A stretch of DNA of 35,056 nucleotides from a virus (Duplodnaviria > Heunggongvirae > Uroviricota > Caudoviricetes): the IMG/VR virus record IMGVR_UViG_2734482782_000004, one strand, 5' to 3'. Below are positions 1,935 through 18,260 of the stretch, piece by piece. The notes under the pieces are model-generated. The model saw only the letters and a list, made by a program, of their open reading frames with translations. It was not told where the DNA came from and did no database searches. Each line of letters begins with the position of its first letter. The stretch's first letter is position 1. The position numbers were made by a program, and so were the translations under genes.

Positions 1935-3098
1935 TCACTCATTATCTTCTGTTTCGTACTCCACATCAGAAAGCCTGACCTCAAGCTCCAAGGACGTCGT
2001 GAAGCCGCTATTATTCAGAAAATGTGTCACCTTAGTGATTGTCCAGTCCTGCTCGTCTATGACGCGCTTAAAGCCTGACACTTTAACCGGTGTTTCCGTG
2101 TAAATATCTGCCCGACCGGTAGCCAAGCTGATGGAGAACTCCGCAACGCCCCGTTGCAGTTTATCCCACTTCGCCTGAGCGGCGCGCATGGCCTGCGCTT
2201 TCGTGGCATATACCGTGGTCAGGGCAAAAACGTTATCAGCCTCACCGGCCATGTATTCACCTTCGCGCGCTTCCGGTACTTTAGGAGCTTTCTTCTGCGT
2301 GACTGGTTTCGCTTTCGGGTGCTCCAGTGCGCGCAGGTGTTTCTCTTTCTTTTTGCGTTTCAGTTTTACCTTCTGCTTTTGCGGCTTCGGGTCTTTGGTG
2401 TGTAACCACTTTGCCGTTACGCCGGTGTAAGCTCCACGGTCAGCAATCGCAAAATGATGACGGTCGCCGTCGCTGCGGGTGATGGTAATCTGCGGGATTT
2501 TTTTACCACTGGCCGTCACCCCCTGCCCCGCTTTGAGAAACAGCAGTTTTCCCATTTTTACCGACACCTCACCGCCGTTGCGTTCTGCAAGACGGGTCAG
2601 AAATTTCGCATCAGACTCCTGCGACTGGTCGATGTGCGGGATTTTAATTCCGGCCAGTGACGGAGCGACACTGGCTTCCAGCCTGTTACGGGAGGCTATC
2701 GCCTCAACAATCGCACCGAGCGTGGTGTCATGCCATGAGCCTTCACGGCGGGAATTGAGCGTCCCGCGAAAATCTGCACTCCGGGCGCGGATGGTGACCA
2801 CATCCGGTGCGCCCCGGTGTTCAACCTCATCAACGGTAAATTTCCCTTTGCATACCAGGGCAAAACCTTTCCAGCCGATATACACCGTCAGGACAGCGCC
2901 ACGAACCGGCAGCCCGACCTGCCCGTCGGCATCGTTCAGTTCAATATCAAGCTGGTCAGCCTCAAAGCCCCGGTTATCCGTCAGGGTCATGCTCATCAGA
3001 CGGTCGCTGATATTGCCGGTAATATCCCTGCTGTCGAGCATCAGCATGTAATCCGGCGTCAGCGTACTGCCTGCATCAAATGTCAGCGTATCCAGCAT
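1935..3098 (-). CDS. D: Tail protein gpD
   Basis: 387-aa ORF, same length and position as P2 D; tightly packed with U. Confidence 0.8.
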   Translation of the reverse strand: MLDTLTFDAGSTLTPDYMLMLDSRDITGNISDRLMSMTLTDNRGFEADQLDIELNDADGQVGLPVRGAVLTVYIGWKGFALVCKGKFTVDEVEHRGAPDVVTIRARSADFRGTLNSRREGSWHDTTLGAIVEAIASRNRLEASVAPSLAGIKIPHIDQSQESDAKFLTRLAERNGGEVSVKMGKLLFLKAGQGVTASGKKIPQITITRSDGDRHHFAIADRGAYTGVTAKWLHTKDPKPQKQKVKLKRKKKEKHLRALEHPKAKPVTQKKAPKVPEAREGEYMAGEADNVFALTTVYATKAQAMRAAQAKWDKLQRGVAEFSISLATGRADIYTETPVKVSGFKRVIDEQDWTITKVTHFLNNSGFTTSLELEVRLSDVEYETEDNE

Positions 3099-3577
3099 TA
3101 TCCCGCCCCCGTAATACCCGTGAATTTAGTCGCCACACTGCCAGCCTTACCGATGAGCGATTCCGCCTGTTTACCAATATCGCCATAAAGCGCGGCCAGT
3201 GATTCATCCACGCGGGTGAGCGACAGCGTAAAATCAATTTTCCGGGGTGTGCCGTCTGCAAAGAAAATACTCCCTGTTTCACTCACCCTGCTGATGACAT
3301 ACATGCCGTAAATCATGCCGGTGCCATCCAGCAACGGCCACGCCCGGCCTTCCTCTGCCATCAGCCTGAGCGTGGTCATCGTCAGCTTGCCGCCGGTCAG
3401 TTCGGGATAAAGCACACCGGCAAGCGTCATGTTTTCCTCGCCAACACCGAGAAACTGGTAGGCATCCCGTTTACCGATACGGGAATTTGACGGCCAGCGA
3501 TAATCTGATTCACGCTGCATGGTCTGGTGTGGCAGCGTCTGGCGCATAAAAACAAACATACCTAACGCGAGCATCAT
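3098..3577 (-). CDS. U: Tail protein gpU
   Basis: 159-aa ORF, P2 U length and position; start overlaps the D stop. Confidence 0.8.
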   Translation of the reverse strand: MMLALGMFVFMRQTLPHQTMQRESDYRWPSNSRIGKRDAYQFLGVGEENMTLAGVLYPELTGGKLTMTTLRLMAEEGRAWPLLDGTGMIYGMYVISRVSETGSIFFADGTPRKIDFTLSLTRVDESLAALYGDIGKQAESLIGKAGSVATKFTGITGAG

Positions 3578-3591
3578 TTTTAGTCACCTCC

Positions 3592-6039
3592 TTAACCGTC
3601 ATGCATCATGCTGGCACGGGCGCGCGCACGTTTATCCCGCTCGTATTTTTCGAGCGCATCCTGTAACTGGCGGTCGAGCTGTGTCCCCGGCGCAGTACCA
3701 CCCGTCAGGCTGATGTGATATTCGTTTTTACTCTGGTCTACATAAGAGCGGCCAGCAGGTGCCGTGACCGGCTGATAAGCCTGATAACCTGCATAAGAGC
3801 TGGTCGCCGGAATATAACCACCGCTGCCATACGTGGCGGCTTGAGTTCTGGCGGCGGTCTGGTCAAGTGTGTCTGACTCTTTGTTGATAACACCGAGTTT
3901 TTCCAGTACCCAGTCAATACCACTGCGCAGTTTGTTGAACGCATTAAGCGGCAGTATCAGCGCGTCAGCCAGTGCCTGCCCGAACATGACGCCCGTGTCA
4001 CGGCAACGGTTCAGGGTGTCCTGGGTGGCTTTGACCGGGGCAATCAGGTTTTTAAACCACTGCCACGCGGCCTGTAACTTTTCGCCCAGCCAGTCAAACA
4101 CCGGCTTCAGTGGCGTGAACAGTTCCCCCACCGGCGCAAATGCCGCTTTCAGCCCTTCAACCACACCGCCAAAGAATGCGCTGACAGGCTCCCAGTATTT
4201 ACGGATAAGCAACGCCCCGGCGACAATGGCGGCCACCACGGCCACAACCGGCCAGCTAATCGCCCCGATGGCCGTCATAACAGCACTGCTAACCGTCGTG
4301 AAGATTGCCCCCATTGCGCCTGCTGCCGCGATAATGGCATTGATGCCGGTGATAACCGGCCAGGCTACAAGACCAATGGCACCGATGATGCCAGTCAGCG
4401 CCAGCGCGCCACCGACAATGAGGCCGATGGTTGACGCCAGTGATTTGTTTTTCTGGATCCAGCCGTCGAGTTTTAACACATACTTTGTGGCCGTCTGTGT
4501 GAGCTTACGCAGTGCGCCTTCCTGCTGGTCAAACAGGTCAGTCCCCACCGCCTCATAAGCGGACTGAAACTCCTTAAAGTCACCGCCGAGGTTGTCCTGC
4601 ATGATATTTACCAGCTCTGCGGTCTTCCCGTCTGAGGCTTTAAACGCAGCGGTCAGTTTGTCCAGCTTTCCGGTTGAGGCGGCAGTCATCAGCACGGCGG
4701 CGGCTGAGCTGGCCTCCTCCCCGAAAATAGTTTTCATGTATTCAGCCTGCTGGGCAGTACCGAGCCGGTTTTTCTCAAAACTGGCCTGCATTTCTTTCAG
4801 AATGGTAAATACTGGTCGGGTGTTTCCCTTGCTGTCTGAGGTTTTCACTCCAAGCTCTTTGAGTGCATCCCATGCTTTTCCCGTCGGTGCCTGCAGGCGG
4901 CTTAACACGGCACGGCTTCCCGTCCCCGCCATTGAGCCTGTGATTTTTGCATCATGCAGCGCCCCGACCATTGCGGCGGTTTCTTCAATGCTGACACCGG
5001 CATTTTTTGCCACAGGTGCGGCATAGGTCAGCGCATCGCTCATGCCGTCAAAATCGGCGGCGGTTTTGTTCATCGTCATGGAGAGAACATCCCCTATATG
5101 AGCGACCTTATCGTTTGAAAGCTGAAAGGCGGATTTCATCCCCATCAGCAGGGCGGCGTTTTCTTCCATCGTGCGGCGGTTCGCCAGCGCCATATTCAGC
5201 GTGACCGGCGTTGCCGCCTGAATGGCATCAACATCCCCACCCGCTTTCGCGATGATAATCTGTGCACCGGCTGCATCATCTGCCGAGGCTGCGGTATTGT
5301 CGCCGAGCTGGCGCGCCTGCTTGCGGAGTGCGGTCATTTCGGCGGAGTCTTTTGCCACTCCTAGCACGGCCTGCAATTCTGAGTTTTTCTGCGCAAACTC
5401 ATAACCGGGCATCAGCAGCTTAACTCCGGCCATCGTTCCCGCCGCCGCAATCCCCACACCGGCAGCGCCCACCGAGGCCATATTTCCGGCCAGTTCCTTT
5501 CCGGCCTGATAACGCTGTTTTACTGCGTTAAGTTTTGCCTGTTGTGCACTGACACGCGCCAGCGCGTCGCGCTGTCGGTTAAGCTGTGCGGTGGTTTCAC
5601 TGATACGGTTTTTCAGTCCCTGCTCATCATGTGCAAGATTGCGGGTATTAATTCCCACAGCGGCCAGTTCCCGCTGCTGGCGTTTAACGGAATCCGTCAG
5701 GCGGTTATATTTCGCCTGTAAGTCCTCCGCCGCACGCTTTGCGGATTCCAGCACTTTCGCCTGAGCACGGGTCGGACGTTCGGTGTTTTTAAACTGTGTG
5801 GCAAGGGCTTCGGCCTCCTGCCGTGCCTTTTCAAGTGCATGACCAGTCACAGCGAGCTGTGCACTGGTCTTGCGGAATCCCTCAATACGGGATGCGTGAC
5901 CGTTCAGCTCGCGCAGTGATTTTTGTGTTTCCCGGATATCCCCCGACAGCGACTTACTCGCTGTGCGGATGGATTTAAACGGGCGGGATGCCTGGTCAAC
6001 AGCCCTGAGCAATACCTGTAATTTTACATTGTTACTCAT
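3592..6039 (-). CDS. T: Tail tape measure protein gpT
   Basis: 815-aa ORF (P2 T length); coiled-coil-rich N-terminal half, Ala/Gly-rich hydrophobic central segment; start ATG overlaps the E' stop. Confidence 0.85.
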   Translation of the reverse strand: MSNNVKLQVLLRAVDQASRPFKSIRTASKSLSGDIRETQKSLRELNGHASRIEGFRKTSAQLAVTGHALEKARQEAEALATQFKNTERPTRAQAKVLESAKRAAEDLQAKYNRLTDSVKRQQRELAAVGINTRNLAHDEQGLKNRISETTAQLNRQRDALARVSAQQAKLNAVKQRYQAGKELAGNMASVGAAGVGIAAAGTMAGVKLLMPGYEFAQKNSELQAVLGVAKDSAEMTALRKQARQLGDNTAASADDAAGAQIIIAKAGGDVDAIQAATPVTLNMALANRRTMEENAALLMGMKSAFQLSNDKVAHIGDVLSMTMNKTAADFDGMSDALTYAAPVAKNAGVSIEETAAMVGALHDAKITGSMAGTGSRAVLSRLQAPTGKAWDALKELGVKTSDSKGNTRPVFTILKEMQASFEKNRLGTAQQAEYMKTIFGEEASSAAAVLMTAASTGKLDKLTAAFKASDGKTAELVNIMQDNLGGDFKEFQSAYEAVGTDLFDQQEGALRKLTQTATKYVLKLDGWIQKNKSLASTIGLIVGGALALTGIIGAIGLVAWPVITGINAIIAAAGAMGAIFTTVSSAVMTAIGAISWPVVAVVAAIVAGALLIRKYWEPVSAFFGGVVEGLKAAFAPVGELFTPLKPVFDWLGEKLQAAWQWFKNLIAPVKATQDTLNRCRDTGVMFGQALADALILPLNAFNKLRSGIDWVLEKLGVINKESDTLDQTAARTQAATYGSGGYIPATSSYAGYQAYQPVTAPAGRSYVDQSKNEYHISLTGGTAPGTQLDRQLQDALEKYERDKRARARASMMHDG

Positions 6040-6459
6040 TCGTGTTTCCGCTTCGCCGGAGCGCCTTTTCGCGCCATGTGATGAGTTCGGTCAGGCTCAT
6101 GGGATACAGTTCTGATGGCGGCCAGTGAAATATCACTGCCACATCCGCCATCAGGTCATCGACCGAGAGATTTTTCGGAAACGTCACTGCACCGAGTTCG
6201 GCGACAAAAAACCGACCACCTTACCGGCCAGCGCCACAAGGTCAGGCAGTTCCAGTGCGGCGACTTCCTGCTCGGTCAGCATCGGTGCCGTCATGCGCGG
6301 CAGCACCTTAATCAGTGCATCGACTTCGGAGTTTGCGACCGCAGCCAGACTGACACCGCGCAGCGTCCCCGCACTGGGTTTCATCAGCGTGACCTGTTCG
6401 ATAACCTGCTCACCACGTTTGACCGGATTGTCCAGGGTAATCACATTTTCTTTGTTCAT
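6032..6459 (-). CDS. E+E': gpE+E' tail assembly chaperone made by programmed -1 frameshift
   Basis: Hand translation: after -1 slippage on T-TTT-TTG (plus-strand caaaaaa at 6205..6211) the reading frame continues 51 codons (VAELGAVTFPKNLSVDD...RRSGNTNE) to a TAA at 6032..6034 that overlaps the T start codon; 142 aa in total. Confidence 0.75.
6184..6459 (-). CDS. E: Tail assembly chaperone gpE (zero-frame product)
   Basis: 91-aa ORF between FII and T; contains the slippery heptamer near its 3' end. Confidence 0.8.
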   Translation of the reverse strand: MNKENVITLDNPVKRGEQVIEQVTLMKPSAGTLRGVSLAAVANSEVDALIKVLPRMTAPMLTEQEVAALELPDLVALAGKVVGFLSPNSVQ

Positions 6460-7046: not shown

Positions 7047-8237
7047 TTAATTGCTGTTAACCGAGGTGACCAGATTTGCCAGGTATTTATCGGTAATACG
7101 CTGGCGCAGGGTCAGGTTTTCAAGAGGAGGAACCGGGGTATAGTCGTAGTCGATATACAGTTTTCCGGCCTTAAGGGTTTCCGCATCGTTGGATTCTTCG
7201 CTGAACCAGCAGGTCGCATCCACGATATAGCCGTTTGTTTTCAGCTCACGAAATTTGGCATTGATGCCGTCAACGATGTCGCGAATCAGCGTTGCGGTGA
7301 TGGGCTTGTCCACCGCCCACATGTGCGCCTCAGCCATCGTGTCGGCCAGCACCTGCGCGGTGCGGGTGTAGTTTTCAAAGAGGAACAGCGGGTCATCGGA
7401 GCAGGTACGGTTACCCCAGAAGCGGAAACCGTCGCGGCGAATCAGCGTAGTGACGCCTGACTCGTTAAGCAGGTCAGCATCGGTGCCGGACTCCTGCAAA
7501 TCCCAGAATACAGAGGCACTGATGCCGGTAACACCGTTTACCCCGACATTGGACAGCGTTTTATGCCAGCCCTGCTCCTGGTCGATTTTAGCGCGCAGAC
7601 CCAGCGCACGGGCGGTGGCATACGCGGTGGCGGTGGTACTGGTGACCGTATCCCATGCGAGGAAATCAGGCCAGATGACCATCAGCTCACGCTGGCTGAA
7701 ATTCTGGCGGTAGGCTTTCACCTCGGAAATGGTCTTACAGCCCCATGCGCTGATATATCCGAAAGCGCGCAGCTTCTGACAGACTGATGCCAGTGCAACA
7801 GCCACCTCTTTGGTGTCCAGTCCCGGCACGCCGAGAATACGCGGTTTAACACCGGTTACCGACTCCGCCGCCAGCAGGGCTTTCAGTCCGGTGTACTGGC
7901 CGTTTTCGTCGGTGGTGCCGATGATATTGGAAACGGTCTGCGCAAGTTTCGTTTCTTCGTCTTCGCCGGTGCCGTCTTCCACACGTACAACAACGGTGAC
8001 TGGTTTTGACTGGTCAGCGATGGCCTGCAACGACGCCGCCAGCGTGCCTTTTTTACCGGCCTTTGCAATTGCGCTCTGCACATTGGTAATCAGCACAGGT
8101 TTATTGAGGGGAAAGGTTTCCGCATCCGCATCGCTGGCCGTGCAGACCATGCCGACAATGGCAGTGGATACGGTGGAAATGACGCGGGTGCCGTCGTTAA
8201 TCTCCAGCACCTGCACGCCGTGATGATAGTCACTCAT
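7047..8237 (-). CDS. FI: Contractile tail sheath protein gpFI
   Basis: 396-aa ORF, P2 FI length and position; GGAG ribosome-binding site upstream of the ATG. Confidence 0.85.
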   Translation of the reverse strand: MSDYHHGVQVLEINDGTRVISTVSTAIVGMVCTASDADAETFPLNKPVLITNVQSAIAKAGKKGTLAASLQAIADQSKPVTVVVRVEDGTGEDEETKLAQTVSNIIGTTDENGQYTGLKALLAAESVTGVKPRILGVPGLDTKEVAVALASVCQKLRAFGYISAWGCKTISEVKAYRQNFSQRELMVIWPDFLAWDTVTSTTATAYATARALGLRAKIDQEQGWHKTLSNVGVNGVTGISASVFWDLQESGTDADLLNESGVTTLIRRDGFRFWGNRTCSDDPLFLFENYTRTAQVLADTMAEAHMWAVDKPITATLIRDIVDGINAKFRELKTNGYIVDATCWFSEESNDAETLKAGKLYIDYDYTPVPPLENLTLRQRITDKYLANLVTSVNSN

Positions 8238-8333
8238 CCGTTTAACTCCGTGGTTAATGGGTGCAACTATTTTCTGTTGTGCAGAGCATGAGACGCTATT
8301 TGACCTGGCTGGTCAGGGGATGAAACAACAGAT

Positions 8334-8359
8334 AAAGAAAATGCGGGCAATTCGCCCGC
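8334..8359 (-). terminator. Rho-independent terminator separating the cargo locus from the FI late promoter region
   Basis: Hairpin gcgggc-aatt-gcccgc (8343..8359) followed on the minus strand by attttcttt. Confidence 0.45.
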
Positions 8360-8517
8360 CTGTCCTGATTTGTACTCACTCATTTTCCGCCTGACAATTT
8401 ACATAGCCCAAATGCTATCAAATCTGACAGTCTGCTTTGAGCGAGGAGCGGACATTGAGCTTGGTCTCAAGTATGCTGATTTTTTTTAGCTAATATCTTG
8501 GTTTTTTGATCAATAGG

Positions 8518-8547
8518 TTGCTGGTCAGCCCTAGGATCAGATATAAA
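8518..8547 (+). promoter_or_regulatory. Candidate sigma70 promoter for the HNH-like cargo gene
   Basis: TTGCTG (8518..8523), 18-bp spacer, TATAAA (8542..8547), about 55 bp upstream of the ATG at 8603; read by eye only. Confidence 0.3.
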
Positions 8548-8602
8548 AAGTATGATTTTATTCTCCCCACATAGATGAAAAAAACAAAGAAGCATAACTT
8601 TT

Positions 8603-9355
8603 ATGACCAAGACAAATAGGCACAACTTTCCTCCAAGCGTTGTAGGTAAGGTAGCAGAGCGCGCTGCATATATTTGTAGCAATCCCTCTTGTCATAGGGT
8701 AACAATCGGCCCGGATCAATTGGCGGAAAATCTTTCTATCAAGACGGGTGAGGCGGCGCATATCTGCGCGGCGAGCCCTGGCGGACCGCGCTATGACATG
8801 TCTCAGTCAGAAACAGAGCGGAAGAGCATAAAAAATGCTATATGGTTGTGCGGAGCTTGTGCTGATTTAGTTGATAAGAATGGCGGTATGGGCTACCCCG
8901 CCGAGTATTTGCGAAAATGGAAACGTGACCACGAATCACTAATGAAGGAGTGCTTGGAGGGAGGAAAGAGGCTAATTTTTCAATTTCTATCGCATCGCCC
9001 AGACGAGAAAATTGCTCTGCGGGTGATCCATTTATTGGAAGACAAGAGTTCTCTTTATCTGCCATATGCTCAAGAGGATCCAGCACGAGTCTCGGATTCT
9101 TTGAAGGAGCTCCGACTCTCTCTTACGGCGATTCGCTCCGAGATTGCACCTGAGTCTCCGCTATCGTTGATCGTCGAGTCAATTGTCCGTGCGTGCCGAC
9201 ACTATATGAATTCAACGCCAGATCGGCCGGGCATTGATGAGCTTAACTTCTCCCTCGGCGCAGTTCGTAAGGTAGTAGGAATTAACATCGGAGAACTATT
9301 GAAACACTATGAAATCCAGGTGAGTCACGAATTGCATTCTATTATTCCTAAATGA
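8603..9355 (+). CDS. Cargo protein with N-terminal HNH-like nuclease motif and a C-terminal domain of unknown function (candidate defence effector)
   Basis: 250-aa ORF in AT-rich DNA at the Z/fun position; residues 25-93 read C-x4-C-H ... GEAAHICAASPGG ... N-x4-LCGAC ... DKN, resembling the HNH beta-beta-alpha-Me fold with a Cys4 zinc knuckle; own terminator at 9378..9412. Confidence 0.6.
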   Translation: MTKTNRHNFPPSVVGKVAERAAYICSNPSCHRVTIGPDQLAENLSIKTGEAAHICAASPGGPRYDMSQSETERKSIKNAIWLCGACADLVDKNGGMGYPAEYLRKWKRDHESLMKECLEGGKRLIFQFLSHRPDEKIALRVIHLLEDKSSLYLPYAQEDPARVSDSLKELRLSLTAIRSEIAPESPLSLIVESIVRACRHYMNSTPDRPGIDELNFSLGAVRKVVGINIGELLKHYEIQVSHELHSIIPK

Positions 9356-9377
9356 ATTTTAACCAATAACTCAAGTT

Positions 9378-9412
9378 GGCGAAGCCTGAAAAAGATGAGC
9401 TTCGCCATTTTT
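9378..9412 (+). terminator. Rho-independent terminator after the HNH-like gene
   Basis: Hairpin ggcgaagc-(13 nt)-gcttcgcc followed by attttt. Confidence 0.6.
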
Positions 9413-9516
9413 CTCGGACCTTGAGTAATTAGTGCAGACACAATAAGCATATTGTTTTCGAGTGCACGACGAACGTAGTTTTCGATACTTTGAGTATTAT
9501 AGCTTCAACTTTTTAC

Positions 9517-10302
9517 TTACATCAAAAATAACTTACAATATTTGTAAGTTGCTTTGTGTACGAAAATGCTTGCGTCAACTCTTGACATCGGATTTTTTAA
9601 TATCCCTCCGGAACTTCCCTTTCCATGTCTCGCAAGATACCCTAACAGTTCAAAGCTATTAGCAGTGCCCGTGAATCTGCTGATTTCCTTTTCATCAATA
9701 TTAAAAGCCATGCTAATTACTTTATCTCTCTGATATTTCTTGCCTTTATAAGTGTCGGGAAAATTTAGTATACCTTTCACATATTTATCATATACATATT
9801 CTCTAATTGTTTCCCACAAACGATAAAGATTAACCCAATCATCACCTAAGGCACACATACCTAAAACAACACGTAAGGATTCATGTTTAGATGATAAATT
9901 AATTAATCGTGAAAAATTATCAGCGCGAGGGTGTGGTTGCTGTATGTCATGGAAATTAAAGGGGTTTACCTGAGTTACATCCATTGATTTAAAGCCGCAT
10001 ATTTCCGAGTAATTAATGCCTTCACTTCCAGAAATAGAAAGAGGACCAAAAGATTGATATCTTTCAAAACCATAAAGAACGCTAAGTGCGCCGTTCATGA
10101 GCATCAACAAACCTTTTAACTTGGAAGCCAATTCATTTGGGTCGGATATGATATTCAAATGAGGAGATGAAAGTAAATGAATATCTGTTTGCCCTAAATC
10201 AGAGTCAGAATCATCATTTATAGAGAAATCATTCGACCAAACTCCACATAATCTTTTAACAAATCCTGTAGATGGAGTAAGTAAAAAACTATAATCGTAC
10301 AT
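9517..10302 (-). CDS. Hypothetical cargo protein, 261 aa, no recognisable motif
   Basis: Long ORF in strongly AT-rich DNA, where chance ORFs of this length are unlikely; ATG at 10300..10302 preceded by GAGGGA about 8 nt upstream; convergent with the HNH-like gene. Confidence 0.55.
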   Translation of the reverse strand: MYDYSFLLTPSTGFVKRLCGVWSNDFSINDDSDSDLGQTDIHLLSSPHLNIISDPNELASKLKGLLMLMNGALSVLYGFERYQSFGPLSISGSEGINYSEICGFKSMDVTQVNPFNFHDIQQPHPRADNFSRLINLSSKHESLRVVLGMCALGDDWVNLYRLWETIREYVYDKYVKGILNFPDTYKGKKYQRDKVISMAFNIDEKEISRFTGTANSFELLGYLARHGKGSSGGILKNPMSRVDASIFVHKATYKYCKLFLM

Positions 10303-10456
10303 AACTCAAATCCCTCTTTTTTATATCCTAAATGGAATACAAAAATTATTGTTTATTTGTTATGTTCAATATACTCACATAACCGAAAACTTTAACACGC
10401 TCATTCTAAGTGAACTAAATCTAAAGATATACCTTTGAAAACTGAAAACTCAATGC

Positions 10457-10487
10457 TGGCAACGTCCGCTCCTGGCACAAAGCGAAC
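10457..10487. repeat. 31-bp imperfect direct repeat, copy A (27/31 identical to copy B)
   Basis: tggcaacgtccgctcctggcacaaagcgaac here versus tggcaatgtctgctcctggcacagagcggac at 11820..11850. Confidence 0.7.
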
Positions 10488-10551
10488 ATTCCTTGACGTC
10501 CTGTCAGGGAAACCCACCTGGACGTTCAGGTGATTCTGTCGATTATAGTCA

Positions 10552-10577
10552 TAAAAAAGCCGCCCCGGAGGGACGGC
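10552..10577 (-). terminator. Strong rho-independent terminator of the 227-aa membrane-protein gene
   Basis: Minus-strand GC-rich hairpin gccgtccc-tcc-ggggcggc followed by TTTTTTAT, about 80 nt downstream of the stop at 10657. Confidence 0.7.
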
Positions 10578-10656
10578 TATAAACTCGCCAGTTAACAAGC
10601 TGATTTTACCGCTTACGCGGTTCTGTCGTTGCGGTGTTCGCTGACCCACTGCGCCT

Positions 10657-11340
10657 TTACAGTTTATCGCTTATGAATCCATGAGCCTTAAATGTCCTGA
10701 CAAAATCCTCATAGCGCGCAATCATCCCCCCCGATGTTTCACGCACATTTTGCTGATGAAAGCGGAAGTTTGCCTCCGATTCAACACTCTTACTCTTCCA
10801 GTCATGGGGAAGGCTTAGCATCACTGGCTTTCTGTTCGGGTAATCAACACTCATAAATGGTAGCGTACTATCTACGTATGCGGTCATAGCGTCCAAAAAA
10901 GCGTCTTTCGCACCATTCACTTCAGTATTGAATAACCGATACTTTTCACCGCTAAATTTTTCAGCTTTTTCAATGTTTAAGCAAACATCTTGCCGTATAC
11001 CGCTCAGGTAGCTCTGCTCAACCCATTGAGTAGTATCCTCATAAGGCAGCAATTCAAGGATCTGGTCGATTATCTTCAGATCATGTTCATCTTGCTTTTT
11101 TTTTACAGGGTCCTCAGTAGATTCATTGGATGTGTGGTAAACGTTGGTGGTCTGATTAATATCCCGCCCGGCCTGGTTCACATCACCCTCGGTTTTCTTT
11201 GCCTTCTGTTTTATGTTGTTTTGCTGTCTGATTCTATATGTAACACCGCCCCCAATACCAAACAGTGCCAGTACGCCGACTAATAAGCTAAGATAGGTAG
11301 CTGCGTCTGCACCAAAATGTGCATTAAGCCATTCAGTCAT
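10657..11340 (-). CDS. Cargo membrane-anchored protein, 227 aa (N-terminal TM helix, then soluble domain); candidate single-gene defence or abortive-infection effector
   Basis: ORF with hydrophobic segment AATYLSLLVGVLALFGIGGGV at residues about 12-33; own extended -10 promoter and own terminator; AAGGA ribosome-binding site. Confidence 0.6.
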   Translation of the reverse strand: MTEWLNAHFGADAATYLSLLVGVLALFGIGGGVTYRIRQQNNIKQKAKKTEGDVNQAGRDINQTTNVYHTSNESTEDPVKKKQDEHDLKIIDQILELLPYEDTTQWVEQSYLSGIRQDVCLNIEKAEKFSGEKYRLFNTEVNGAKDAFLDAMTAYVDSTLPFMSVDYPNRKPVMLSLPHDWKSKSVESEANFRFHQQNVRETSGGMIARYEDFVRTFKAHGFISDKL

Positions 11341-11370
11341 TTGAACTATGTCCTTACAGTGTGAGTAAAG

Positions 11371-11400
11371 ATTATAATAACAGAGCTAACTTGCGCAGAA
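11371..11400 (-). promoter_or_regulatory. Candidate extended -10 sigma70 promoter of the 227-aa gene
   Basis: Minus-strand reads ttctgcgcaagttagctctgTtattataat: TGnTATTAT / TATAAT element with a weak -35; lies immediately downstream of the terminator at 11403..11433. Confidence 0.45.
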
Positions 11401-11402
11401 AC

Positions 11403-11433
11403 GAAAAAAGGCAGGGGAGGTAACCCCCCTGCC
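11403..11433 (-). terminator. Rho-independent terminator, probable end of the tail-fibre late transcript
   Basis: Minus-strand hairpin ggcagggg-(loop)-cccctgcc (11410..11433) followed by TTTTTTCGTTT. Confidence 0.65.
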
Positions 11434-11819
11434 TTTAATCAAGTTCCTCCATCCCTTACGGGCGTCCGGTCAGTTGCTTGATGGCAACCAGACCAGCTAG
11501 CATTATTTGCATCACCAGTAAGACTGTTGTTAGCGTTATCACTTCGACGTCTCCTCTTCCAGGAGAGCGCCACACGTAGTAAGTGCTTTTGGTTCTACCC
11601 GCCCCCCTCACTCCGCATCCATTAGTTAGCAGGTACAAGCAGCACTCTTTCGTGTGGTAAGCCAACAGGACAGCACTGGACTGACGCCTTGAGCTTTAAT
11701 ATTTCCTTCCGATCCATACAACTAGGTCTGTTAAAAGCCCCTAGGACGAATTCTACAGAGATGGCTATGGTGCAGGTTTCGGCTATAGGGCTCTTTGATG
11801 TAATCGAGGGTCATAACGT

Positions 11820-11850
11820 TGGCAATGTCTGCTCCTGGCACAGAGCGGAC
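11820..11850. repeat. 31-bp imperfect direct repeat, copy B, just 3' of gene G
   Basis: See copy A; copy B overlaps the left arm of a 10-bp-stem hairpin (11836..11877, tggcacagag / ctctgtgcca) lying 22 nt downstream of the G stop. Confidence 0.7.
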
Positions 11851-11899
11851 TGTCAGATTAGGCTTTACTCTGTGCCATAGATATGTAAGCTAATACAAC

Positions 11900-12427
11900 T
11901 TATTGCGGCATTTCCGGCCATTCAGGATTTGCAGGATCCACACGACTGATCAGAACGCTGTAGCGTTCCCATGATTCCAGTCGGCTACGCTCCTCATCTG
12001 TTGCCATGTTCAGTCTGACCGCGCGCTCCAGCGGCAAAATCACGGATTCAGCATCTGCAAGAAGTCTGGCTTTCCGAATTTCTGCCTGCTGCTGTAATTC
12101 CTCTGCCGTATAAATGCGTTTAATCACTTTGCCGTCCTTAAACATCCAGTTCCCTGAAATGTCCGCCCGTCGGTTAGCAGTAATATCCGCCACTTCAACA
12201 ACACTTAATCCATCCGGTCTGATAGCTGTCACATCCTTTTCCACATAGTGGATGATATTATCTTTGTCGTACGCTATTTTTATCGTGTCATCAGCAAAAT
12301 ACTTTTGTTCTTCGTACCAGTTCTTACCATCTTCTGAAAAAAACCAGACAACATCAAAGTCCTTTGTCAATTGATATTGTTCAACCGTTTTTGGATTACC
12401 CGCCGTAATATTTTTTAAATGCTGCAT
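11900..12427 (-). CDS. G: Tail fibre assembly chaperone gpG
   Basis: 175-aa ORF immediately downstream of H, P2 G length. Confidence 0.8.
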
Positions 12428-12430
12428 AAA

Positions 12431-14680
12431 TTATACCTGCGCCACGTTATACCATGTCCCGTTAATGTATTTCTGCACCGGTCTGTAATATACGCCACCA
12501 ATGTTATCGGCAGAGTTTGAGCCGGTATCCTGAACAATAATGCCGGTATATACGCAACCTGACGGAGCCTGATGCGTCCATGTAGTACCATTATTTGCTG
12601 GTTTATATGTAGATGCACCGCCCAGCCGCATGTCTCTCACATAACGTGAATCTGACTCAGTTTTGGTGTATGCACCAACATCTCCCGCTGAGGGTTTATG
12701 AGCAGTTGTATATAGTTGCGCCCATCCAGACCAGTTAGCATCTGTGGTATCTCTTCGGGAACGAATATATGCCGGAGCATGAGCACCGCTGGTTCCACTC
12801 CAGCCAATAAGTAACTCACCCTCTCCTACTGCGGTTACGCCAGTGAGATGAAGCACATTACCATAGGCTGTTGGGTAGCCATTGTTGTATGCCTCATACA
12901 TCTGAATACCTGGTGTCCCCTTTACGCTCCCACCTAATGCATTAACACGGTTTCTGGATACCAGTGTATTAATATTTATATCGGCAGAGCCATCAAATCT
13001 GACACCATTAATATTTCTTGCGTTCGCTAACTTCGTTGCTGTTGCAGCATTTCCTGAAAGGCTGGAAATAAATGGATGTGAACAGTAATAACCACGTCCA
13101 TTTTTAAAATCCAGAATAGCCTGTGCGTTCGTGCTTTCTGTAGCGGGATTAGTTGCCCCCCACTTATATGTCGTTTGACCGACGACATAATCCTCTGTCG
13201 GAACAATAACCGTTAGCCCTTCCTCTGCAAGAATTTGTACAGGGAAAGCTCTGGCTTCAACATAAAAAACACTACATACATCATCATCTTTCAGGCTTGT
13301 AACAATGGAATGGATTGAACGCTCATTAGTCTGATACGTCCAGAAATAACCTGCCGCATATGAACCACGATCAGTCCAGCCTCCGGGCATAACCATGCCA
13401 TTAAACTCGCAGTTATTCATTACATAATCGCCGTTATAACAACCAGTGGAAATAACAACGCGGGATGCCATTTCTCCTGAAAGGCTGGCAGCACGGCGAA
13501 AGATAACGGGGTACCACTTCCCGGCAACGACATTTGCAGGGGCTGCAAACGAATACTTTCGCATTCCCTTTTTCTTATCCACTTCACCTTTGCTGTAAAC
13601 ATTAATGTTACTCAGGAAGCGTTCTTTATCAGGGATATCCGCACCGTTTTGATCTTTCTGAAGACGTTTTTCAGCATTGTCATAGGCAGACTTCACCGCC
13701 TTTGGCGTTGCAGCCTGCGTTTCAGAATCACTGTTGGTGGCGCTACTGAGCTGGACAAGACCTTTTCGCGCCGTGGTGGCATCCTGTGCAGTGTATTTCC
13801 CGTTAGCAAGGTCATATGCTGTCTTAACCGCCTTTGGCGTTGCCGCAAGCGTTTCAGAATCGCTGTTGGTGGCGCTACTGAGCTGAACAAGGCCTTTTCG
13901 CGCTGTTGTGGCATCCTGTGCAGTGTATTTCCCGTTAGCAAGGTCATATGCTGCCTTTACCGCTTTCGGCGTTGCGGCGAGCGTTTCAGACGTGCTGTTA
14001 GTCGCACTACTGAGCTGAACAAGGCCTTTTCGCGCGGTGGTAGCGTCCTGTGCGGTATATTTCCCGTTAGCAAGGTCATATGCGGCCTTAACCGCTTTCG
14101 GAGTTGCAGCCAGTGTTTCAGACGTGCTGTTGGTCGCACTGCTTAACTGAGTAAAACCTTTTGCGGTCAGCGAGGCGTCAGGGTGACGTCGTGACTGTTC
14201 ATGTTCTGCAATTTTGTCATCAACGTAATCCTGCGTTGCCATCACCGTTGTGGTGTCAATGGTCAGCTCCACTGAGGCCACACTGCTGACGATGATGACC
14301 ATGCGGCAGGTCTGCGAACGCCCTGAGCCTTCGGCAAGGGCTGGCTTATAACTTTCGGCCATGTTCGCCACGGCAATTAGCGTTCCCGCATCATCGTACA
14401 GGCCAAGTTCACGCATCCAGAAACCACCCACCTCCGGCGGAATAACCAGCTCTGCGATAATATAATTACTGTTTCGTTTGTCCTGGCTGATTTTGTTCAG
14501 CGCATGTCGCCAGACTTCATGGATAAGCCCGGTCTGTCCGGCATCCGGGACAGGCAATTTACCACCGCCATCCCCGACGGCCATCGTGGTAATGTTGACC
14601 TTCCGCCCTCCCGGTGCGGTTGCCGCTGCCAGCTTTGCTGCACCGGCAGTGGTGATAACGGTTTTGAATTTTGTGCTCAT
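12431..14680 (-). CDS. H: Tail fibre protein gpH, with an expanded internal tandem repeat
   Basis: 749-aa ORF; N-terminus MSTKFKTVITTAGAAKLAAATAPGG is P2 H-like; contains about 3.8 tandem copies of a 44-aa unit (LSSATNSTSETLAATPKAVKAAYDLANGKYTAQDATTARKG); longer than P2 H (669 aa by memory). Confidence 0.85.
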   Translation of the reverse strand: MSTKFKTVITTAGAAKLAAATAPGGRKVNITTMAVGDGGGKLPVPDAGQTGLIHEVWRHALNKISQDKRNSNYIIAELVIPPEVGGFWMRELGLYDDAGTLIAVANMAESYKPALAEGSGRSQTCRMVIIVSSVASVELTIDTTTVMATQDYVDDKIAEHEQSRRHPDASLTAKGFTQLSSATNSTSETLAATPKAVKAAYDLANGKYTAQDATTARKGLVQLSSATNSTSETLAATPKAVKAAYDLANGKYTAQDATTARKGLVQLSSATNSDSETLAATPKAVKTAYDLANGKYTAQDATTARKGLVQLSSATNSDSETQAATPKAVKSAYDNAEKRLQKDQNGADIPDKERFLSNINVYSKGEVDKKKGMRKYSFAAPANVVAGKWYPVIFRRAASLSGEMASRVVISTGCYNGDYVMNNCEFNGMVMPGGWTDRGSYAAGYFWTYQTNERSIHSIVTSLKDDDVCSVFYVEARAFPVQILAEEGLTVIVPTEDYVVGQTTYKWGATNPATESTNAQAILDFKNGRGYYCSHPFISSLSGNAATATKLANARNINGVRFDGSADININTLVSRNRVNALGGSVKGTPGIQMYEAYNNGYPTAYGNVLHLTGVTAVGEGELLIGWSGTSGAHAPAYIRSRRDTTDANWSGWAQLYTTAHKPSAGDVGAYTKTESDSRYVRDMRLGGASTYKPANNGTTWTHQAPSGCVYTGIIVQDTGSNSADNIGGVYYRPVQKYINGTWYNVAQV
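13664..14161. repeat. Tandem 132-bp repeats (about 3.8 copies) inside the tail fibre gene
   Basis: Direct inspection: the block gcgctactgagctg(g/a)acaag(a/g)ccttttcgcgc... recurs with a 132-bp period; it also creates an artefactual Cys/Arg-rich antisense ORF. Confidence 0.8.
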
Positions 14681-16474: not shown

Positions 16475-17100
16475 AGAGGACTCCCGGTTTTGCCGCCGCT
16501 GTCGCCGGGGTGTTTATGGGTATGCAGTACCTTCCCGTTTGATGAAAGTTCACCGCCGGTGTGTTCAATGTTGCCGCGCATCGTCCCGCCCTTCTGCACT
16601 TCCAGCGTGCCGGTAATCAGCTTGTTGGTGCAGACCACCTCCGGTGTGTCCAGGGTGACGCGGGTTGATGCTTTCACCATGACCACCGGCACCGTGGCAG
16701 TAACAGAATCAGAAGCCGTCACGCTGGCCGTTTTAATTCCGCTTACCGTGAGTGCACTGGTTTCAGGTTCATACTCAATCACCGCCCCGTCAGGGAAACG
16801 GATATGCAGGGCATCCGCCGACGCCGACGGCGCGGGGTTATCGCCGGAATAAATCCCCGGCAGAACAAACGCCGTGTCAAGTTCACCGCCCACGGCCAGA
16901 ATCAGCACCTGTTCCCCCACGGAAGGTGCCCACCATGTGCGCGAACGACCGGCGCGATGGGTCAGCCACTGAAGCCAGTCGGTGCACATGCCGCCGGTCT
17001 GCACACGGCAGCGACCGGCATTAAGGTCGGTTTCGACGATAATGCCAGTGCGAATCATATTGCGTATAAAGCGAAGAATTTCATTGTATTGTGCATTCAT
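16471..17100 (-). CDS. V: Baseplate spike protein gpV
   Basis: 209-aa product from the internal ATG (MNAQYNEILRFIRNMIRTGIIVETDLNAGR...); the longer track ORF begins at an upstream alternative start inside cargo DNA. Confidence 0.8.
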   Translation of the reverse strand: MNAQYNEILRFIRNMIRTGIIVETDLNAGRCRVQTGGMCTDWLQWLTHRAGRSRTWWAPSVGEQVLILAVGGELDTAFVLPGIYSGDNPAPSASADALHIRFPDGAVIEYEPETSALTVSGIKTASVTASDSVTATVPVVMVKASTRVTLDTPEVVCTNKLITGTLEVQKGGTMRGNIEHTGGELSSNGKVLHTHKHPGDSGGKTGSPL

Positions 17101-17186
17101 TCGATAATAATGATTCTGTACAATCTCGAAGTAAATCACACCACGATTTCTGGTGCACAGAACAACAAGGGACAACAAAATCCATT

Positions 17187-18260
17187 ATGAGTACTTACTT
17201 TTTCTCGTCAGAAACAATGAAAGAATTGTTCAAAGATTATCTGGTCTTTTTGAACACGCTGACTCCCAGCACAAACTTTGAATCAAACAGAAACAAAATA
17301 ATTGCTCAAGCAATAAACTTCATTTCCGAAAACCCTGAAGATTGGGACAAAAAATCCCAGTACAACATTGCTATGATTGGCGACACCTTTAAAAGTTTCT
17401 TAAGAGAAAAGGGAGAAGATAACAACAGCATCAACCTTATATTCACTTGCTTTTTTAGATTTATCATTGAACCAAGCATTCTCTCTCCGGAAATAGAGTC
17501 TCACTTTTCACCACTAAGAACCATCAAGGATTTTGCTCTGTATAACTATAATGAATTCGATGAGCGGAGCAGAGCACAGATAGACTTTTCTCTTAGAGAA
17601 CTGCCATTAGCAATGGTTAAAGAAGTTTTAAGCTCCAGCAATGTTGACACATATAAAAAATACATTGATAGTTTAAACGAAGGGCGTCAATTTTTCGAAA
17701 AGTGCGACTCCTTCTTAAAGGAGCAACATGCCAAAATAGAGTCAATTAAAGAGTCATTAAAAGGGTATGAGGTCGCATTTAATTTTGTTGGACTGTTTGA
17801 AGGCTTTAATTCACTTGGCAAAAAGAAAGAAAGTGAAATCATGCTATCAAGAATAATTCTTATCATCTTGGCTATAATCATTCCCTCCCCGCTGATATAC
17901 TATGGAATGCATAAATTACCAGCTCTCGAAACGACAAATGCTGCCACATATTTTATGTCAGCACTACCTTTTGCATCAGTTACATTGATTTTCATGTATT
18001 ACTTTAGAGTTGTACTGCTAAATCATATATCGTTACGAACTCAGATTATGCAAATAGAACTCAGAAAGAGCCTTTGTCAGTTCATTCAGAGTTATAGCGA
18101 CTATTCCTCAGAGATAAGGAAAAACAATCCGGAAGCGCTTTCAAAATTCGAAGACGTAGTATTTTCAAACATCATGCTATCCGATGATAAGATACCATCT
18201 ACATTTGATGGCATTGAGCAAATAGCATCGTTAATCAATTCATTAAAAAATGGAAAGTAA
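17187..18260 (+). CDS. Cargo membrane protein, 357 aa (soluble N-domain of about 215 aa, two TM helices, C-terminal tail of about 80 aa), at the S-V junction (P2 orf30 position)
   Basis: AT-rich ORF opposite in strand to the tail genes; ATG at 17187 with AAGGGA 14 nt upstream (the next ATG is at 17217); hydrophobic segments IMLSRIILIILAIIIPSPLIYYG and AATYFMSALPFASVTLIFMYYFRVVLL; followed by a bidirectional terminator. Confidence 0.6.
   Translation: MSTYFFSSETMKELFKDYLVFLNTLTPSTNFESNRNKIIAQAINFISENPEDWDKKSQYNIAMIGDTFKSFLREKGEDNNSINLIFTCFFRFIIEPSILSPEIESHFSPLRTIKDFALYNYNEFDERSRAQIDFSLRELPLAMVKEVLSSSNVDTYKKYIDSLNEGRQFFEKCDSFLKEQHAKIESIKESLKGYEVAFNFVGLFEGFNSLGKKKESEIMLSRIILIILAIIIPSPLIYYGMHKLPALETTNAATYFMSALPFASVTLIFMYYFRVVLLNHISLRTQIMQIELRKSLCQFIQSYSDYSSEIRKNNPEALSKFEDVVFSNIMLSDDKIPSTFDGIEQIASLINSLKNGK

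Follow-up and report, generated by a model that had tools for sequence, protein, structure and literature searches.

The closest described relative of the gene considered here is DS-29 (working name HEP3), a single-protein anti-phage system described by DeWeirdt, Mahoney and Laub (Science 2026, PMC13092281; preprint 8 January 2025, bioRxiv 10.1101/2025.01.08.631726). In their Table S6, HEP3 is a single coding sequence at NZ_RRWI01000012.1:2077-2862 that is marked as defensive (TRUE) and named DS-29; it has a DefensePredictor log-odds of 9.79 and no HHblits homology to known defence proteins (PMC13092281). On E. coli MG1655 carrying the one-gene unit, T4, Bas60, Candy and RB69 plated 10^1.3- to 10^6.3-fold less efficiently (−log10 efficiency of plating in Table S7: Bas60 6.34, T4 5.0, Candy 3.70 and RB69 1.26), and the result is marked as replicated in Table S8, where the sequence is also printed (PMC13092281). 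The construct was reportedly functional with its native upstream region, and homologues were found to reach as far as Halobacteria (PMC13092281). Using HHpred, the same authors obtained a match of residues 157-252 to PF18867 (HEPN-like_int), with a probability of 0.59 (PMC13092281). Other work bears on the setting of the gene. A survey of P2-like prophages has reported that their tail genes house a secondary hotspot for defence genes, and that near-identical defence genes are shared with cryptic chromosomal islands (bioRxiv 10.64898/2026.02.27.708500); the Z-region entry of P2-EC58 (AJ512683) has a foreign ORF at this same locus, with an inverted repeat annotated to its left and to its right. 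DUF6650, the family label carried by the neighbouring gene, corresponds to ThsG, the domain that serves type VI Thoeris as its ligand-responsive effector (bioRxiv 10.64898/2025.12.03.692087).

The window, by which we mean the whole stretch of 35,056 nucleotides that was analysed, is a P2-like prophage. On its minus strand, positions 9517..10302 encode a protein of 261 aa, with the ATG start codon as the complement of 10300-10302. The sequence-only reading had found no function that could be recognised in this protein, and profile searches agree: Pfam, PADLOC, PHROGs and NCBIfam returned nothing below an E-value of 0.1, no PADLOC or Pfam model (TIR and PDC-M68 partner models included) matched at E-values up to 1, and the RefSeq label is ‘hypothetical’. 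It was a literature search on DUF6650, the annotation of the neighbour, that led to the supplementary tables of DeWeirdt, Mahoney and Laub. When compared by BLASTP with the sequence printed in Table S8 (WP_061089765.1, the protein of the E. coli EC_J_9 locus), the window protein was found to have the same length and to match at 257 of 261 residues without gaps (98.5%); the four substitutions (R17G, D154Y, T184A and I245N) are all at sites that are variable in the family. E. coli CFSAN061762 encodes a protein 100% identical to that of the window. Given 98.5% identity to published DS-29, the window gene is an allele of a single-gene defence system that has already been validated, and we put at about 0.87 the probability of the full reading, namely that 9517..10302 (-) is an allele of DS-29/HEP3, a stand-alone single-protein anti-phage system, carried as a moron cassette in the tail hotspot of a P2-like prophage. 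The ‘hypothetical protein’ of this prophage island can thus be annotated as the experimentally validated single-gene system DS-29, and with that annotation the P2-like prophage probably protects its host against T-even-type phages. At the level of function, the gene is already known as DS-29.

That the ORF is a real protein-coding gene had been argued from its length in very AT-rich DNA, and this argument holds when put into numbers. The bin at 9501-10500 has a GC content of 0.344, the lowest of the whole 35-kb window, in keeping with the AT-rich setting that had been noted. In 5000 shuffles of 9300-10500 the longest stop-free run had a mean of 75 codons and a maximum of 181, against 262 observed; 0/5000 shuffles reached the observed open run of the 261-codon ORF, and the analytic probability of 261 open codons at the local composition is about 1.6e-9. 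A chance origin of the ORF is excluded. The good ribosome-binding site that had been reported is also present, as a Shine-Dalgarno sequence AGAGGGA (10311..10317, minus strand) 8 nt upstream of the ATG. It had been stated beforehand that the gene would fall if its frame were not maintained in related islands; the reading frame proved to be preserved in homologues whose identity ranges from 90% to 44%. Against the window gene, pairwise dN/dS is 0.33 for Klebsiella, 0.23 for Citrobacter, 0.35 for Pantoea, 0.14 for a prophage copy and 0.15 for K. aerogenes, and the family is, as judged from these ratios (0.14-0.35), under purifying selection. Even a real gene could be carried as an inactive or silenced passenger, a decaying moron without current function in the prophage. 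The very AT-rich DNA around the gene fits such a state, as do the failure of a consensus scan to find a sigma-70-like promoter upstream and the existence of a frameshifted relative in Enterobacter mori; but the frame of the window copy is intact behind its good Shine-Dalgarno sequence, its protein is identical to that of E. coli CFSAN061762, the DNA of the 15 E. coli copies is at least 99.4% identical, and purifying selection acts on the family. Furthermore, the four differences from the validated allele are confined to variable positions, and the native upstream region was reportedly enough for the published construct to work (PMC13092281). We consider an inactive passenger to be very improbable.

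The island that holds the gene is embedded in tail genes. To its left lie genes for the tape-measure protein, gpE/E', the tail tube and the tail sheath (7047-8237), and to its right the gene for a tail-fibre assembly protein (11900-12427), followed by that for the tail fibre. P2-type phage genomes match just the outer ~6% of the 8300-11900 segment, which corresponds to its flanks, and from these matches to the flanks and from the tail-gene surroundings it follows that the island occupies a variable tail locus, namely the Z/fun position of P2 (between genes G and FI). In the manner of a Z/fun moron of P2, it is found between G and the sheath gene FI, is absent from reference P2 genomes and has inverted repeats at its ends; the earlier proposal of a horizontally acquired island is therefore upheld, the island being an accessory-gene hotspot of a P2-like prophage. 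A tblastn search with the 261-aa protein against 50,697 phage genomes gave no match, from which it follows that the gene is absent from sequenced P2-type phage isolates. Two other features of the tail region were observed. The tail-fibre protein (12431-14680, minus strand) contains four tandem copies of a unit of ~43 aa (…KGLVQLSSATNS.SETLAATPKAVKAAYDLANGKYTAQDATTAR…), and among the tail/baseplate genes there is a second insert of AT-rich DNA (17.0-18.5 kb, GC about 0.36), in which an ORF of 389 aa (17091-18260, plus strand) runs on the opposite strand and has no Pfam or PADLOC match. This ORF may be another accessory or defence cargo gene.

Three copies of a hairpin-forming element of ~37 nt, with the core CAAYGTCYGCTCCTSGCWCARAGC, bound the island and split it into two cassettes. 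Copy A (8421..8457), which is inverted relative to B and C, forms the left boundary of the island and of a two-gene cassette; copy B (10452..10487) separates this cassette from that of a 227-aa gene, and copy C (11815..11859) is the right boundary of the island. Cassette A-B thus holds the HNH-like gene and the 261-aa gene, and cassette B-C the 227-aa gene. An Rfam search of the island gave nothing meaningful, and so the boundary repeats match no known RNA family. The region matched ~1000 E. coli genomes, and the end-points of matches in E. coli genomes fall within these repeats. Strain 144 has cassette B-C only, in an island beside a YeeP-like GTPase and Ag43; in strain CFSAN061762 this same site is occupied by both cassettes, and strain cM2a has both in the P2 hotspot, as in the window. 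This distribution suggests a site-specific or repeat-mediated exchange of cassettes between the P2 tail hotspot and CP4-like islands. Movement of the 261-aa gene in short repeat-bounded cassettes between the P2 hotspot, chromosomal islands and other mobile-element contexts goes beyond what was published for DS-29, and provides a concrete example of the shuttling of defence genes between P2 prophages and cryptic islands described in the prophage survey (bioRxiv 10.64898/2026.02.27.708500). The 227-aa protein of the second cassette (WP_000141343.1; 10657..11340, minus strand) has a hydrophobic N-terminal segment and no family match, and its DefensePredictor log-odds of 5.3 predicts it to be defensive (PMC13092281). 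Its gene is followed by a terminator-like hairpin (10558-10578), and is found without the pair in other E. coli chromosomal islands. A GTG-start ORF of 82 aa (10401-10649, minus strand) was considered as a gene and dismissed: it runs across repeat B and the 227-aa gene's terminator, PGAP/RefSeq leaves it unannotated, and since similarity in loci without the pair stops at the repeat, it is almost certainly no gene.

The partner of the 261-aa gene in cassette A-B lies at 8603..9355 on the plus strand, so that the two are convergent, as had been described, across a spacer of 161 bp. It encodes a protein of 250 aa, the N-terminal ~110 aa of which match, by PADLOC, the HNH domains of CBASS endonuclease effectors (E-values of 4e-24 to 1e-19) and of PDC-M68A; the PDC-M68A match is confined to this HNH part, and the 261-aa protein is left unmatched. 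The DUF6650 label comes from PGAP and precomputed Pfam hits. Our own Pfam-A scan of the neighbour did not return DUF6650 at E-values up to 1, and BLASTP showed no similarity between the neighbour and the DUF6650 protein of DS-27/SMEK. With a DefensePredictor log-odds of 5.5 the neighbour is itself predicted to be defensive (PMC13092281), and the most likely reading is that it is another candidate defence gene, independent of the 261-aa gene but carried with it in one repeat-bounded cassette.

The sequence-only reading had left it open whether the 261-aa protein acts alone or together with the HNH-like protein. The first part of this claim has stood, as a single-CDS allele with 98.5% identity defends; a required partnership has not, as homologues of each gene occur without the other. 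On the published contig NZ_RRWI01000012.1 the HNH-like gene occupies 3024-3776 of the opposite strand, outside the DS-29 coding sequence (2077-2862), and as the published construct consists of this coding sequence only, the gene is sufficient on its own. In the window the 261-aa gene likewise forms a transcription unit of one gene, being convergent with the HNH-like gene and separated from it by a hairpin in the spacer (9378..9414; an 8-bp GC-rich stem with extra pairs, −15.5 and −16.5 kcal/mol, z −3.1 and −2.6). A run of Ts follows this hairpin on the plus strand only, and the hairpin accordingly looks like the terminator of the HNH-like gene, with a possible role as a barrier for both transcripts. 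On the upstream side, the 227-aa gene ends in its own hairpin, beyond which lies repeat B.

A two-gene system, in which the 261-aa protein would for example detect infection, or produce or pass on a signal, and the response would be executed by the HNH nuclease with its DUF6650 domain, has to be weighed against this. The linkage of the pair is real: all 15 of the complete E. coli genomes with the 261-aa gene (15/15, from 5,426 genomes) also have the neighbour, the convergent pair recurs in at least three unrelated Klebsiella contexts, in the P2 hotspot and on chromosomal islands of E. coli, both genes come and go together between repeat copies A and B, and DUF6650 is the effector of a TIR-DUF6650 system, type VI Thoeris (bioRxiv 10.64898/2025.12.03.692087). 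Yet DS-29 alone protects up to 10^6-fold (PMC13092281), the DUF6650 protein DS-27 also defends as a single gene, and genes that are convergent are not co-transcribed. Natural loci separate the two genes in both directions. An intact 85%-identical gene in Citrobacter adjoins just the last 30 codons of the HNH gene, a 90%-identical copy on a Pantoea megaplasmid has no trace of it, and the copies with 66%, 61% and 44% identity (in a lambdoid-type prophage, an integrative conjugative element and a K. aerogenes island, with differing neighbours) have no HNH/DUF6650 neighbour; neither do the distant homologues, which adjoin an integrase gene, BREX/ApeA/HicAB genes or housekeeping genes. Consistent adjacency to the partner was not found, as the neighbour is missing at the Citrobacter, Pantoea, Klebsiella aerogenes and P. 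ananatis loci, in one prophage and at all distant homologue loci. Conversely, full-length HNH relatives occur on plasmids with no relative of the 261-aa protein nearby: an HMM search of six-frame ORFs found none within 4 kb of those in Klebsiella, Ketogulonicigenium and Moellerella. A DUF6650 paralogue of lambdoid prophages, which stands alone between Q and the holin gene, also has no 261-aa relative nearby. A two-gene system is for these reasons unlikely. Comparative evidence indicates, rather, that the 261-aa gene acts alone, and that it does not need the HNH/DUF6650 neighbour, to which it is linked in E. coli and Klebsiella; that the gene is not mechanistically tied to this neighbour goes beyond the publication.

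The two genes also differ in their divergence from the Klebsiella locus L011. Between the window and this locus, dS is 0.15 for the 261-aa gene and 0.045 for the HNH-like neighbour (protein identities of 89% and 97%, respectively), which means that the two have different histories; a threefold gap in dS between adjacent genes indicates recombination within the cassette. Two other loci are of interest for their surroundings. In the Citrobacter loci L017-L020 the last 30 codons of the HNH gene remain at about 5951-6040, a natural deletion or replacement, and a KAP NTPase cluster lies beyond. In the Klebsiella locus L013 a gene for a TIR-domain protein (3117-3899) is found 2 kb upstream of the pair with an SRAP gene between; a link between this TIR gene and the pair was rejected because L015 has the same SRAP gene and pair without the TIR gene.

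At the level of the family, the 261-aa protein has 32 close relatives in Enterobacterales. An exhaustive search gave 76 cluster representatives, nearly all of 230-280 aa, and a profile search gave 90 matches, among them sequences from Cyanobacteria, Acidobacteria, Actinobacteria and Firmicutes; none of the relatives recovered in these searches carries a name or a Pfam domain. The DS-29 family is a widespread single-gene module of prophages, integrative elements, plasmids and defence islands. In a scan of species-representative genomes the single 261-aa protein as query confirmed nothing and alignment A1 recovered 5 loci only; alignment A2 was too divergent to serve as a seed. In Enterobacter mori (locus L021, 7887-8712) a relative of the gene lies in two frames and is apparently a frameshifted pseudogene.

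Conserved residues were defined with two family alignments of 67 sequences each, A2 and A3. In A2 the invariant residues are G71, R225 and H226; in A3 they are W156, L159, R225, H226 and M239, with Y160, F210, T213, G221, P238 and A244 nearly invariant. The conserved motifs of the family are DWVNLYR and RFTxTANS...G..ARHG......PKNPMS..EA, and they lie in the helical C-terminal region (codons 157-252; 9547..9834, minus strand), the region of the published PF18867 match. The R225-H226 codons (9625..9630, minus strand, checked in the sequence) encode a pair that is invariant in both alignments and is a candidate catalytic pair. The Lys/Gly-rich C-terminal string that had been picked out from the sequence is indeed present, as ARHGKGSSGGILK (residues 224-236), and proves to be other than low-complexity filler, as it holds this invariant Arg-His pair and forms the loop that follows it. 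AlphaFold2 gave models from a shallow alignment (pLDDT 86.6) and from a deep one (pLDDT 90.3, pTM 0.89). Both have a small α/β N-terminal part and a helical C-terminal half that ends in a long helix (241-260). The pair R225-H226 is placed just before this last helix, roughly at the position of the catalytic residues of HEPN proteins. A Foldseek search of the model against the PDB gave no match better than an E-value of 1.6, and the family profile matched no PDB sequence at E-values up to 1.

How the protein acts can be approached from the HEPN label. Pfam scans of the 67 family members at E-values up to 0.01 and up to 10 returned scattered chance matches and no HEPN family, and no HEPN profile is present among the Pfam-A matches listed for the 261-aa protein and 67 relatives. 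Alignment by hhalign of the family profile with the canonical HEPN protein of DS-28 gave a probability of 0.5%. The Rx4-6H motif was also sought: no R-x(4-6)-H is conserved across the DS-29 family, and the sole invariant Arg and His are adjacent. The evidence for the HEPN label of DS-29 is thin, and the protein is not filed here as a member of a HEPN family. A tentative reading, possible rather than probable, is that the DS-29 family is a divergent HEPN-like nuclease that uses R225/H226. The C-terminal helical half (residues ~157-252) would then be a divergent HEPN-like domain, in which R225-H226, N215/T213 and the PKNPMS loop would form the centre of a nuclease, probably an RNase; infection by T-even-type phages would activate this centre, which would then arrest the growth of the phage, perhaps with the loss of the infected cell, with the N-terminal α/β part (residues 1-125) as a putative regulatory or sensing part. 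Somewhat short of an even chance is given to the reading in which DS-29 is a stand-alone defence protein and not a HEPN-type RNase, the likeness to a helical bundle being generic and the R-H pair and PKNPMS loop having another role. They might, for example, bind or process a nucleotide or phosphate ester, or else a protein of the phage or the host, within a fold and mechanism that have no characterised relative. A more radical proposal is that the family is a new catalytic variant or enzyme type on a HEPN-like scaffold, with the adjacent Arg-His pair and the PKNPMS loop in place of Rx4-6H, and that in enterobacteria it may also have been drawn into a repeat-bounded cassette to cooperate with the HNH/DUF6650 protein there, for example by giving it an activating signal as TIR does in type VI Thoeris; this we think unlikely. 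Whichever applies, the invariant residues W156, L159, R225, H226 and M239 are direct targets for mutagenesis, a step beyond the publication of DeWeirdt et al.

Set beside known systems, the locus and its protein show several partial likenesses and one close one. With the Z/fun (TO-region) cassettes of P2, for example that of P2-EC58 ORF1 (AJ512683), the island shares the G/FI insertion point and the inverted-repeat flanks, but it carries other cargo genes. The resemblance to type VI Thoeris (TIR with DUF6650/ThsG) and to DS-27/SMEK (a single-gene DUF6650 system) is confined to the DUF6650 annotation of the neighbour; the 261-aa protein does not belong to the TIR proteins, no relation to these systems could be detected for it, and the island has no TIR gene. 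PF18867 HEPN-like_int is the sole Pfam family that has been suggested for the 261-aa protein, by the HHpred analysis of its discoverers (PMC13092281), and the location of the gene in a small repeat-bounded cassette recalls the cassettes of integrons; against this likeness, that probability was just 0.59 and HMMER found no match to the family in Pfam-A for the 67 family members, even at an E-value limit of 10. In comparison with HEPN toxins and effectors (HI0074/MNT-HEPN, HepT, Cas13, Csm6 and the C-terminal domain of AbiA), the protein lacks Rx4-6H and has the adjacent R-H pair and PKNPMS loop instead, possesses an extra N-terminal α/β region and gives no sequence-profile match. The close likeness is to DS-29/HEP3 itself, which on its source contig likewise stands between the 227-aa gene and the 250-aa HNH-like gene, the latter again convergent with it; besides the four substitutions, the difference is one of location, as the window copy resides in the tail-gene hotspot of a P2-like prophage, whereas the inspected E. 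coli copies other than that of cM2a reside in chromosomal islands, beside a YeeP-like GTPase and Ag43.
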